Below the pieces are notes generated by a model, which saw only the letters and a list, made by a program, of their open reading frames with translations, did no database searches and had not been told where the DNA came from. Of a stretch of DNA of 64,000 nt, positions 922 to 63,869 are shown piece by piece; positions within the stretch are counted from its first letter, which is position 1; each line of letters opens with the position of its first letter. The DNA is from an uncultured Alphaproteobacteria bacterium. GTDB taxonomy: Bacteria > Pseudomonadota > Alphaproteobacteria > Rs-D84 > CACZYB01. The stretch spans positions 1,801 to 65,800 of the forward strand of contig CALXQL010000005.1 in NCBI GenBank assembly GCA_944390685.1, read 5' to 3'. The position numbers and the translations under genes are program-made.

Positions 922-1563
922 ATGTATAAAAAAAAGAATTATTTAAAAAAAATAGCAATATATGATTTTGATGGCACATTATACGGCGGGGAAACTATAA
1001 GTAATTTTTATTTTTATTGTGCAAAACATAATTGGCTTTTATTTTTGTGGCTACCATATTTCATCATATTGTTTTTATTAAAAAAAATACATTTAATAAG
1101 TCTTAAAACATTTAAACAAGAATGTTTTCGCTTTTTTGGAAAACATCTATCTGTTGATAAAGTTTATAAATTTTGGGGAGTAAATAAAAAGAAAATTTAT
1201 CCATGGGTAAGACAAGAATTAGAAAGGGATAGAAAAAGAGGCTATCATATAATTTGTATATCTGCCACACCAGAATTTTTAATTCATGGAATTGTAATAA
1301 AATACTTAAAAATTGATACATTGATTGGAACTCTATTAAATCCAAAGGATAATAGAAAAATAATAGGTAAAAATTGTAAAGGTGAAGAAAAGGTGGAACG
1401 ATTACATCTATGGTTAAAGAAAAATAACATAAAAAATTATAAAATTGTAAAAATGGTTTCAGATTCCCTTGCGGATATGCCTTTATTTAATATAGCAGAA
1501 AATAAATTTGCGGTTTCTCCAAAAGGAAAAATATATAAAGGTCTTCCAAAAAGAAATATATAA
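922..1563 (+). CDS. HAD-IB family hydrolase/phosphatase
   Basis: Motifs YDFDGTL, ISAT, NCKGEEK, SDSLADMP. Confidence 0.85.
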   Translation: MYKKKNYLKKIAIYDFDGTLYGGETISNFYFYCAKHNWLLFLWLPYFIILFLLKKIHLISLKTFKQECFRFFGKHLSVDKVYKFWGVNKKKIYPWVRQELERDRKRGYHIICISATPEFLIHGIVIKYLKIDTLIGTLLNPKDNRKIIGKNCKGEEKVERLHLWLKKNNIKNYKIVKMVSDSLADMPLFNIAENKFAVSPKGKIYKGLPKRNI

Positions 1564-1658
1564 CACCGCTGGATAAAAAAACTATTGACTTTTAAATAAA
1601 AAAACGTTATTCTATGAAAACATTTTAATTTTTAAGAAGAAAATAAAAGGATTTCAAA

Positions 1659-1805
1659 ATGAAAAGAACATTTCAACCATCAAAAATCGTAAGATCAAGA
1701 AGACATGGTTTCCGTGCAAGAATGGCTACATATAACGGAAGAAAAGTATTAAATGCAAGAAGAGCAAAGGGAAGAAAACGTCTTTGTGTTCAAGTTGAAT
1801 TTTAA
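1659..1805 (+). CDS. rpmH: 50S ribosomal protein L34 (48 aa; not in the ORF track)
   Basis: [45 protein letters not shown] aaagga. Confidence 0.97.
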
Positions 1806-1825
1806 TATTTACTAAAAATTCAAAT

Positions 1826-1848
1826 GGGGGCTTTATGCCCTCTTTTTT
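1826..1848 (+). terminator. Intrinsic terminator after rpmH
   Basis: GGGGGC-ttTAT-GCCCTC followed by a T-run. Confidence 0.6.
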
Positions 1849-1883
1849 ATTGCAAAAAATATAGATATTTATATAATAACAAT

Positions 1884-2390
1884 ATGGTAAATTGTATAAG
1901 ATATAAACATAATAAAGTAAAATTAAGAACGTTAAAAAGTCGTAGCCAAGATTTTTTTCGTATAAATCCTCGCGCTATTGCTAAAATTGGCCGTAAACGT
2001 TTGGTAAAAAAAGGTTTAATTGAAAAAAATGCTCAATTACCAGAGGATAATCCAAACCATTTTATAAATGATTTATTTATGACCCATTGGGCACCTACAA
2101 GATTTTTAGATGGTGATATTCATATAGGTTTTACCATAACCACAAAAACAATTTCAAAAAGAGCTAATGTAAGAAATCTTATAAAACGTCGTTTAAAAAA
2201 TGCAATAAATGAACATATAAGGAATTTCAAAGTCTCTGGCTTTGATTTTGTATTTACAGCCCGAAGCGGTATTCTTGATGCAAGTTATAGTGATATAATT
2301 GCCCAAGTAAAAAGGGTTTTGAAATATGTTGAATGCCGTAAAAAGGATGAAGAAAAAAAGAAATTTATATCAAGAAAATATATTGATTAA
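1884..2390 (+). CDS. rnpA: Ribonuclease P protein component with an insertion (likely start 1884)
   Basis: IGFTITTKTISKRANVRNLIKRRLK (RNR-like motif), DFVFTAR; lies directly after rpmH. Confidence 0.88.
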   Translation: MVNCIRYKHNKVKLRTLKSRSQDFFRINPRAIAKIGRKRLVKKGLIEKNAQLPEDNPNHFINDLFMTHWAPTRFLDGDIHIGFTITTKTISKRANVRNLIKRRLKNAINEHIRNFKVSGFDFVFTARSGILDASYSDIIAQVKRVLKYVECRKKDEEKKKFISRKYID

Positions 2391-2392
2391 AT

Positions 2393-60955: not shown

Positions 60956-60956
60956 A

Positions 60957-61883
60957 ATGCAAAAAGTGAATATAGCATTTTGTTTTGATAAAAATCTATG
61001 GAAACATTTTTGTGTGGAAATAATATCATTATTAAATGTATCAAAAAACAAATGCGATTATGATATATATGCAATAATATCAAATGATATTACAAAAGAT
61101 ATTCAAGAAGAAATAAGAAAAATTTTTGATAAATATAATATCAATTCAACTTTAACATTTATACCAATAACTAATGATTTTAAAAAATCAAAAACAAATA
61201 AGGAAAAAGGATTTTATTTCCGCCTTCATCTTCCACAATTATTACCAAATATTGATAAAATAATATATGCGGATATAGATATAATTTTTAATAAAGATTT
61301 AAAGGATTTTTATAATCAAGATATGAAAGATTATATTCTTTTTGGGGTAAAGGATGGACTTAATATAACACGTCCATGGAAAAAACATATGGCAAGAATC
61401 CCAAAAAATTATAATACCTATTTCACAAAGGGGGATTATATAAATTCCGGTGTTTTATTGATGAATTTAAAAGCCATGAGAAAACTTAACCTCTATAAAG
61501 AATTTTGTGATTTAATGGAACTATCTTTTCCACATAGGGATCAAGATATTTTGAATATAACTTGTAAAAATCATATAAAAATATTACCTCTAAAATATAA
61601 TTTCACCCCCCGTTCCACACACAAATATAAAAAATTGATAAAAGAAAAATATATGACAAATATTGAATTGAAAGAAGCCAAAAGCTCAGCAATCATTTAT
61701 CATTTTATAAATCATAATCCATGGAATAAAATAACAAAGAAAGCCAATCTATGGTGGCAATACGCCCACCTAACCCCATATTATGAAGATTTTAAAAAGA
61801 ATTTTTTAAACAAAACTAGCCCTTTACAAAAGATGAAATTTTTTATAATGGAATATAAAAATAAAAGAGGAATAAATGATTAA
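60957..61883 (+). CDS. Glycosyltransferase family 8
   Basis: YFRL, IIYADID, YINSGVLLMNL, DQDILN. Confidence 0.9.
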   Translation: MQKVNIAFCFDKNLWKHFCVEIISLLNVSKNKCDYDIYAIISNDITKDIQEEIRKIFDKYNINSTLTFIPITNDFKKSKTNKEKGFYFRLHLPQLLPNIDKIIYADIDIIFNKDLKDFYNQDMKDYILFGVKDGLNITRPWKKHMARIPKNYNTYFTKGDYINSGVLLMNLKAMRKLNLYKEFCDLMELSFPHRDQDILNITCKNHIKILPLKYNFTPRSTHKYKKLIKEKYMTNIELKEAKSSAIIYHFINHNPWNKITKKANLWWQYAHLTPYYEDFKKNFLNKTSPLQKMKFFIMEYKNKRGIND

Positions 61884-62841
61884 AGAGAATTATATCCCAA
61901 TATGTTTTTCAAGTGATAATAACTTTGTTCAACATTTAACATGTGCTATGGCATCTATTTTAAAAAATGCAAAAAGTGAATTTATAAAATTTTATATTAT
62001 TACAGATGGTTTTTCAAAAGAGAATCAAACAAAACTTGAAAAAGTATTGAATTTACATCCTTCATCAATAACATATTTAAAACCAAATGAAAGTTTATTG
62101 AAATTTTGCCCTAACACTACTGGTTCTTGGCAATCTATAGCTACTTATTATAGACTTTTTATTCCAGAACTTATACCTGAAGAAAAAGTAATATATCTAG
62201 ATTGTGATATGATTATTAGAACATCTTTGTTAGATTTATACAATAAAGATTTAAAAGATAATATAATTTTAGGTGTTAAGGATGTAAGTGAACAAGATGA
62301 TATAAAAAGATTGAATATACCTAAATATATAAATGGCGGTATGCTTTTAATGAATATTGCAAAAATGAAAAAAGAAAATTATGTAAAAAAAATGTTTGAT
62401 ACATTAAATAATAATAAAGCAATAATAAAAAAACATGATCAAGATATTATAAATTTAACTTGTTATGATAAAATCGCATATATAGAAGAAGAATGGAACA
62501 CACAAGTTAGAAGAAAAGGTGTTAGTAAATTTGAAACAATAAAAAATCCAAAAATTTTACATTTCATATCCCCTAAAAAACCATGGATTTTTTTTAAACC
62601 ATTAACCACAACAAAATGGCATAAAGAATATTTTAAATATTTACAATATACTGAATTTAATAATTTTATAAAAGAATATAAAATTAAATCATTATTATTA
62701 TTTCCTATAAAATTATTTTATCCAACAGGTATCATTAAAAATATTTTAAATAATATATTTTCAATAAAAAATTCCTATGATAAAAAATATAAATTGATAA
62801 CAATATTTGGAATTACTTTTAAAAAGAAAAGAGAAAATTAA
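61876..62841 (+). CDS. Glycosyltransferase family 8
   Basis: TYYRL, IYLDCD, YINGGMLLMN, DQDIIN, HFISPKKPW. Confidence 0.9.
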   Translation: MIKENYIPICFSSDNNFVQHLTCAMASILKNAKSEFIKFYIITDGFSKENQTKLEKVLNLHPSSITYLKPNESLLKFCPNTTGSWQSIATYYRLFIPELIPEEKVIYLDCDMIIRTSLLDLYNKDLKDNIILGVKDVSEQDDIKRLNIPKYINGGMLLMNIAKMKKENYVKKMFDTLNNNKAIIKKHDQDIINLTCYDKIAYIEEEWNTQVRRKGVSKFETIKNPKILHFISPKKPWIFFKPLTTTKWHKEYFKYLQYTEFNNFIKEYKIKSLLLFPIKLFYPTGIIKNILNNIFSIKNSYDKKYKLITIFGITFKKKREN

Positions 62842-62993
62842 ATGAAAAAAGCACTCAATACTATATTATTTTTGGTAATTTCAATAACTTGAGTAATTGT
62901 AGGTTAATAAATCCAAACGACGATGGAAAAACATTTTATATCAATGGTAAAAGTTTTTATGGCGACGATGGATTTATAACCTTAACCGATTAA
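62842..62993 (+). pseudogene. Frameshifted small putative lipoprotein (about 50 aa if one T is restored)
   Basis: MKKALNTILFLVISIT then TGA; the -1 frame continues LSNCRLINPNDDGKTFYINGKSFYGDDGFITLTD*. Confidence 0.5.
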
Positions 62994-62996
62994 GTA

Positions 62997-63194
62997 TTAT
63001 TTGTTTTTTTGTATAGCTTGTTGTAATTTTTGTAATTTTTCTATTTCAATATTTAACTCATTTTCTACTGGATCACCATAATGTCCAACAAGTTTATCTT
63101 TTGGAAATGTTGACTTTCTCCACCAAATTTCCTCTTTTAATTCTCTGATTTTTTGTTTTGTTTTTGTAATTTCATCATGAATATTCATAATCAT
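62997..63194 (-). CDS. Small coiled-coil orphan protein (about 63-65 aa)
   Basis: RBS aaggag; upstream TTGACT-18-TAAAAT. Confidence 0.65.
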   Translation of the reverse strand: MIMNIHDEITKTKQKIRELKEEIWWRKSTFPKDKLVGHYGDPVENELNIEIEKLQKLQQAIQKNK

Positions 63195-63401
63195 CTCCTT
63201 TTAAATAAAATGTGATTTTAGTCATATAAATTATAAAAAGTCAATAAAAATATATAAAATAATATCTTGACATAAAAATGAAATAATGATATTTTAAAAG
63301 AGATTTCCCAAAAAATAAATAATAAAAAAGGGAAAATGGTAAATGGTGAGTTTCACTCTTTATCAATTTTTTTATTATAAATAACAAAGAAAGGAAAAAA
63401 T

Positions 63402-63869
63402 ATGTCCGTAAAAATAAGATTATCAAGAAAAGGTTCAAAAAAACGCCCTTTTTATCATATAGTTGTAGCAAATAGTCGCGCTCCACGTGATGGTGACTTT
63501 ATTGAAAAAGTTGGAACTTATAATCCAATGCTTCCAAGAGAAGATGCTAAAAGAGTAACTTTAGTAGGTGAAAGAATAAAACATTGGTTATCAATTGGTG
63601 CAGAACCAACCGATAAAGTTGCAAGATTTTTAAGCGATGCAGGTTTAACAGAAAAGAAATATGTAATAAACGATAAACAAACCAAAAAACCACTTCCAAA
63701 GGCAAAAGCTCAAGAAAGAATGAAAGCTTTGGAAGAAAAAAGAAAAGCTGAAGAAGAAGCAAAAAAACAAGCTGAAGCAGAAGCACAAGCTCAATTTGAA
63801 GCTGGTAATGAAACCGCTACTGAAGAAGCATCTGCTGCACCAGCAAGTGAAGAAACACCTGCTTCTTAA
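63402..63869 (+). CDS. rpsP: 30S ribosomal protein S16 with C-terminal extension
   Basis: [31 protein letters not shown]. Confidence 0.97.

Follow-up and report, generated by a model that had tools for sequence, protein, structure and literature searches.

UGA as a rare but very probably genuine stop codon in an AT-rich uncultured alphaproteobacterium with both release factors

The genome of an uncultured Alphaproteobacteria bacterium (GenBank assembly GCA_944390685.1; GTDB lineage Bacteria; Pseudomonadota; Alphaproteobacteria; Rs-D84; CACZYB01) very probably uses TGA as a rare but genuine and functional stop codon, under the standard code (translation table 11) and with both class-I release factors, a reading to which we give a probability of about 0.9. 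The question was raised by a 64,000-nucleotide stretch of contig CALXQL010000005.1 (positions 1,801 to 65,800 of the forward strand), here called the window. An earlier note on the window had seen no gene ending in TGA and had proposed that UGA may be an unused or nearly unassigned codon, either through loss of release factor 2 (RF2) or as an intermediate in a change of the genetic code. Positions given without a contig name are positions in the window.

Stop codon usage

The draft genome consists of 929,369 bases in 25 contigs, with an estimated completeness of 97.5% and a G+C (GC) content of about 29%. Open reading frames (ORFs) of at least 100 amino acids (aa) number 820 across the genome and end in TAA, TAG, and TGA in 669 (81.6%), 116 (14.1%), and 35 (4.3%) cases, respectively, and they give a coding density of 88% under table 11. 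The TGA share is steady at 4.0-4.6% for length cut-offs from 80 to 300 aa (17 of 369 ORFs at 300 aa or more), and the genome-wide asymmetry between TAG and TGA (116 vs 35) has a binomial P of 2e-11.

A recount of the window bore out the absence of TGA-ending genes: the approximately 63 complete genes at 922..63869 end in TAA (52) or TAG (11) and none in TGA. The earlier note had put the chance of such a result at about 0.1% from an assumed TGA rate of 10%, which is not the rate of this genome; at the genome rate of 4.3%, the probability of finding no TGA in 63 genes is 0.064 (hypergeometric 0.057). Sliding windows of 63 consecutive ORFs lack TGA stops in 37 of 126 cases, and contig C8 has none in 99 ORFs. 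The TGA-free 64-kb window is an ordinary sample of a genome with a low TGA rate.

The TGA codons that do end ORFs stand at the ends of conserved genes. Matches in NCBIfam at E <= 1e-5 were obtained for 22 of the 35 TGA-ending ORFs, and ten lie above the curated cut-off (RecO, ValS, UvrB, HolB, GlgX, SufS, RecJ, TruB, LolCE, and F0 subunit a). For full-length NCBIfam models, the TGA-ending protein stops 0-6 residues from the end of the model. The ValS match covers residues 9-860 of 865 (model positions 8-856 of 860), and the matches of UvrB, RecJ, LolCE, GlgX, SufS, and HolB run to residues 678 of 684, 596 of 599, 426 of 426, 701 of 704, 393 of 399, and 415 of 417, respectively. In-frame read-through from the TGA to the next stop adds a median of 4 codons over the 35 ORFs. 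It reaches 50 codons or more in only one of them, in which an ATG lies two codons past the TGA, and this lone long extension apparently represents a following gene that shares the frame.

Calling ORFs again with only TAA and TAG as stops changed little: the count went from 820 to 823 and the coding bases rose by 0.4%. Most TGAs internal to ORFs in this call lie at the extreme N- or C-terminal ends or in short, probably spurious ORFs, and the call fused no conserved gene halves. The sole functional in-frame TGA found is the recoding site of prfB, the gene for RF2. A genome-wide search for a tRNA with a UCA anticodon, which the earlier note had suggested as a check on its reading, found none among the 37 tRNAs predicted by ARAGORN in the 97.5%-complete genome; tRNA-Trp occurs with the CCA anticodon only, and the same 37 include no suppressor or selenocysteine (Sec) tRNA.

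Release factors and the prfB frameshift site

Searches with Pfam PCRF and RF-1 found exactly two class-I release factors in the genome, which NCBIfam splits cleanly into prfA and prfB. Release factor 1 (RF1) reads UAA and UAG. Its gene, prfA, lies in the window (15870..16928, + strand; TIGR00019 at 514.7 bits vs a cut-off of 423.25) and ends in TAA, and the translation matches both Pfam families, carrying the tripeptide P-E-T at the PxT position as well as the GGQ motif. The RF2 gene, prfB, lies on another contig (C13:6682-7716; TIGR00020 at 501.4 bits vs a cut-off of 370). Its product has the SPF and GGQ motifs and aligns with the Escherichia coli RF2 chain 1gqe_A over residues 23-361 (E = 5e-110).

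The RF2 body has no start codon of its own and is preceded by a 20-codon leader (MFENLIEDIKNTISDIRGCL), which terminates in AGG GGG TGT CTT TGA C; the body is in the +1 frame relative to this leader. In the E. coli type of prfB frameshifting, termination and frameshifting compete at UGA, and the device thereby gauges RF2. The site found here has all parts of that type: the Shine-Dalgarno (SD)-like AGGGGG is separated by a 3-nt spacer from the slippery CTT T, and the in-frame TGA has a C after it; the motif is identical, and it stands out as a GC-rich element in a genome of 29% GC. A survey of 12,753 genomes gives this motif for 64% of them, and in 98.6% of these the premature stop is TGA; the focal site fits the consensus described there for the canonical autoregulatory site (PMC12421855). 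By its sequence, RF2 is intact, and it is predicted to be autoregulated through the UGA codon. A frameshift site of this kind would make sense only if RF2 reads UGA as a stop. That so GC-rich a site has been kept in so GC-poor a genome speaks strongly, if indirectly, for UGA being read by RF2 here. The proposal that UGA is unused or nearly unassigned, that RF2 has been lost, or that the genome is caught between two codes is refuted by this intact prfB with its SPF, GGQ, and UGA frameshift site, and by the roughly 4% of stops that are TGA.

Relatives in the order

RF2 was detected in all 31 genomes of the order, among them 13 further genomes of the same genus; G018, which is 70% complete, has only a partial RF2-like piece. 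The SD-like element and CTT TGA in the correct frame are found at 27 of 30 prfB loci of the order, the focal genome included. At G029:C2:71865-75869 the site reads CTT TAA C and not CTT TGA C, a TAA variant reported for 1.4% of motif-bearing genomes in the survey cited above (PMC12421855). At G030:C30:545-4555, prfB is a continuous 378-aa frame without a frameshift site, and the third remaining locus, in G027, is cut by a contig end. The frameshift site is clearly under purifying selection, and its conservation at 27 of the 30 loci suggests that RF2 is made and is active at UGA.

Stop usage was sampled in five relatives, with 20-kb pieces analysed separately and ORFs of at least 100 aa counted. 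Within the genus, TGA ends 4 of 150 ORFs (2.7%) in G010 and 21 of 203 (10.3%) in G006, with GC contents at third codon positions (GC3) of 0.19 and 0.21, respectively. Outside the family, the corresponding figures are 27 of 404 (6.7%) in G022 at a GC3 of 0.17, and 18 of 135 (13.3%) and 19 of 144 (13.2%) in the GC-richer G021 and G029, at GC3 values of 0.32 and 0.37, respectively. The TAG share is 9-16% in all five. An 80-kb sample of G022 gave 1.9% TGA (1 of 53) and its whole 455-kb contig 6.2-6.7%, the low figure being sampling noise. At 4.3%, the focal genome falls among its AT-rich relatives, and the TGA share climbs with GC as it does in bacteria generally. Stop usage in relatives of comparable composition counts in favour of table 11.

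Composition and the rarity of TGA

The focal genome has a GC3 of 0.166, equivalent to an A+T content at third positions (AT3) of 0.834, and at the two-fold A/G positions of Gln, Glu, and Lys the share of G is 12.4%. Under a neutral model, a G content of this size should yield stop codons that are 78% TAA, 11% TAG, and 11% TGA. The observed TAG share of 14.1% is slightly higher than the 11.0% expected (P = 0.006).

Published surveys describe TGA usage as rising steeply with GC and TAG as flat near 20% (PMC3549826; PMC8789281). Expressed against AT3, UGA goes down, UAA goes up, and UAG stays flat, with UAG tending to exceed UGA above an AT3 of approximately 0.71 (PMC4989110; PMC8789281; PMC3549826). 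According to Wei, Wang and Xia, highly expressed genes avoid UGA in each of the 14 species of their study, and the RF2 share of release factors drops steeply at high AT3; they also note that low UGA usage need not signal a reassignment in progress (PMC4989110). Their curve for the RF2 share, fitted to 14 species and explaining 47% of the variance, extrapolates to zero at an AT3 of approximately 0.816 (PMC4989110). The focal genome shares with the AT-rich table-11 bacteria of these surveys its order of stop usage (TAA 82%, TAG 14%, and TGA the rarest at 4%) and the possession of both release factors (PMC4989110; PMC3549826; PMC8789281). Against the trend that they set out nothing qualitative differs, although AT3 is slightly past 0.816 and prfB is nevertheless kept. 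That TGA is rarer than TAG here is an already-known pattern for genomes this AT-rich, as published by Wei, Wang and Xia (PMC4989110).

The TGA stops that remain are unevenly placed. With start sites taken from the longest ORF, an overlap with a same-strand ORF downstream is seen for 14 of the 35 TGA stops, compared with 73 of the 785 stops that are TAA or TAG (P = 3e-6, odds ratio 6.5). Among the 14, nine are 4-nt overlaps as called, with an ATGA context by eye; C4:393-1820/1817-2653 and C20:14181-14948/14945-15265 are examples. A change of TGA to TAA within ATGA would ruin the ATG of the next gene, so surviving TGA stops would be enriched where they are constrained in this way.

These observations suggest an explanation in which G-to-A mutation pressure, in a genome with 83% A+T at third positions, would convert TGA into TAA. 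As the leakiest stop, UGA may be at an added disadvantage where RF2 is the lesser of the two factors, as published trends lead one to expect, and many of the remaining TGA stops are found where they overlap the next gene. The UGA codons left, approximately 4% of stops, would be read by an intact, autoregulated RF2 and would simply be rare.

Two codon-level observations stand beside this account. In the +2 frame of genes, TGA outnumbers TAG by 4.4 to 1, so that only terminating TGA is depleted and off-frame TGA is abundant. The CGG codon is nearly absent from the genome (33 of 273,027 codons; CTG and CTC occur 136 and 265 times, respectively), although a tRNA-Arg(CCG) is still encoded at C11:15249-15325.

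Other features of the window and genome

Window ORFs were called by a greedy longest-ORF procedure (at least 60 aa, overlaps of up to 60 nt permitted). As first called, they number 63, of which 51 end in TAA, 11 in TAG, and 1 in TGA. The TGA-ending ORF (8656-8868, - strand, 70 aa) was rejected as spurious; it lies antisense within a GcrA-like gene (8537..9073, + strand; NCBIfam NF050816, E = 1.3e-33) that ends in TAA and was missed by the caller solely through an 80-nt overlap with the adjoining ORF. Another TGA-ending ORF, antisense to a TadA-like gene (32876-33373, + strand; identified by NCBIfam, stop TAA), has no family match. The ORFs cover 92% of the window, and its genes are full-length under table 11, as the earlier note had stated for the conserved ones. 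TAG stops close 11 of these ORFs, at 2393-3607, 14514-15860, 20095-20592, 24450-25379, 25383-25811, 30078-32741, 38119-38409, 42039-42401, 48510-49388, 49398-50186, and 55814-57064, and these coordinates fit the TAG-ending genes listed in that note.

A two-piece (permuted) alphaproteobacterial transfer-messenger RNA (tmRNA) is located at 558..900 on the + strand (Rfam RF01849, 205.9 bits; RF04321, 137 bits) and assigns this DNA to the Alphaproteobacteria. Translation of its tag frame gives ...ANDNRSFAMAA followed by TAA, in agreement with the TAA already read there. ARAGORN did not report this tmRNA on either the window or the genome; the Rfam search found it at full length. The sole tRNA of the window is a tRNA-Met (CAT) at 60023..60099 on the + strand (ARAGORN).

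Directly after prfA, at 16930-18522 on the + strand, lies a gene for a 530-aa two-domain protein resembling phospholipase D and cardiolipin synthase, with sub-threshold NCBIfam matches; the gene does not encode a release-factor methyltransferase. Elsewhere in the genome (C5:68351-68947, C3:18580-20211, and C11:17300-18181), the ORFs with TGA stops include one for a BspA-like protein that matches a type IV secretion effector family below threshold, one with a weak VirB-type secretion match, and one for a phage terminase large subunit of fragment length. These three ORFs may point to life in association with a host and to remnants of prophages.

Discussion

Several results weigh against the view that UGA is here an ordinary, if rare, stop codon of table 11. 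At 4.3% against a neutral expectation of 11.0%, TGA is 2.6-fold lower than the G content predicts (P = 6e-12), and the ratio of TGA to TAG trinucleotides is 1.4 in intergenic DNA and 0.30 at stop sites. Because these two ratios differ, mutation bias is insufficient to give the asymmetry, and one has to suppose a degree of selection against UGA as a stop. On this point the earlier note was right to hold that AT bias alone does not account for the excess of TAG over TGA, and the milder alternative that it offered, in which UGA is avoided and RF2 makes up a small share of release factors, is compatible with the 2.6-fold shortfall and is the published norm at AT contents this high (PMC4989110). 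In the str-S10-spc-alpha cluster, 30 genes were identified (those of EF-G, SecY, Adk, RpoA, and 26 ribosomal proteins), and they end in TAA (25) or TAG (5); the absence of TGA from this cluster has a chance probability of 0.27, which is not significant alone, and it is in keeping with UGA avoidance where expression is high. The earlier note had allowed that an intact prfB together with several percent of TGA stops, highly expressed genes included, would tell against its reading; the intact prfB and a genome-wide share of approximately 4% were found, while in the ribosomal-protein cluster TGA ends 0 of 30 genes. Family matches in NCBIfam are absent for 13 of the 35 TGA-ending ORFs, and the gene calls come from a crude longest-ORF procedure rather than a trained gene finder. 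In a draft of 25 contigs at 97.5% completeness, moreover, the absence of a tRNA is not absolute.

If RF2 had been lost or inactivated and UGA left unassigned, one would expect no TGA stop among the 63 window genes or the 30 of the ribosomal-protein cluster, as observed, and the AT3 of 0.834 does lie past the value of about 0.816 at which one regression puts the RF2 share at zero (PMC4989110). The prfB gene argues otherwise, being intact, above its curated cut-off, and equipped with SPF, GGQ, and a frameshift site that depends on UGA, as do the retention of that site at 27 of the 30 prfB loci and the 35 of 820 ORFs that end in TGA, at least 10 of which encode conserved proteins ending at the C-terminus of the family model. 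We regard loss of RF2 as extremely improbable. Still less credible is a reassignment of UGA to Trp (table 4) or Gly (table 25), for which nothing speaks beyond the low GC and small genome that are frequent in lineages of that kind. Such lineages, the Mycoplasmatota with table 4 and the Gracilibacteria and SR1 with table 25, resemble the focal genome in these two features and in having few TGA stops; they are without RF2, whereas here prfB is present, no UCA tRNA was found among the 37, and TGA ends conserved proteins. In Gracilibacteria and SR1, the reassignment of UGA under table 25 goes with the absence of RF2. Within the Mycoplasmatota, every genome without prfB in the survey data had a UGA suppressor tRNA (PMC12421855). 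A sense UGA also sits badly with a tRNA-Trp of CCA anticodon, with a median extension of 4 codons past the TGAs that end conserved proteins, and with a table-4 call that adds only 0.4% of coding bases and joins no conserved halves, the density under table 11 being 88% already.

UGA might instead be avoided beyond what composition requires, either because RF2 is scarce or weak or because the genome is late in depleting UGA on a codon-capture path, with RF2 kept mainly for UAA and for its own autoregulation. We consider this unlikely. The shortfall of TGA beside a slight excess of TAG and the gap between stop sites and intergenic DNA would both suit it, as would the 2.7% of TGA in the same-genus G010 and the 14 of 35 TGA stops that overlap the next ORF, survivors that may be partly locked in place. 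However, a UAG share above that of UGA, together with UGA avoidance in highly expressed genes, is the published norm once AT3 exceeds 0.71 and carries no implied reassignment (PMC4989110), and relatives of equal AT3 reach 6.7-10.3% TGA, so that there is no uniform collapse across the lineage. The frameshift site, for its part, works only where RF2 competes efficiently with frameshifting at UGA, and it is clearly under purifying selection. The wider form of the idea, to which we give slightly less credence again, places the whole order at a late stage of UGA depletion, in which free-standing TGA would be nearly purged, many survivors pinned by overlap, and RF2 retained mainly for UAA and for UGA-sensing autoregulation, and some members may be near-intermediates of codon capture. 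Candidates could be G010 with its 2.7% TGA, G029 with TAA at its prfB site, and G030 with no frameshift site. If this were true, the clade would offer a useful natural series on the emptying of UGA before a change of code.

The reading of TGA as a rare but functional stop of table 11, served by both release factors, is the one that we prefer, and the data of this analysis fit the published composition trend. As a caution, a 64-kb sample cannot tell a codon that is never used from one used at 4%. The finding matters little other than for correct annotation, in which table 11 is the one to apply and prfB, which is predicted to be expressed through a programmed +1 frameshift, should be entered as such and not as a pseudogene.

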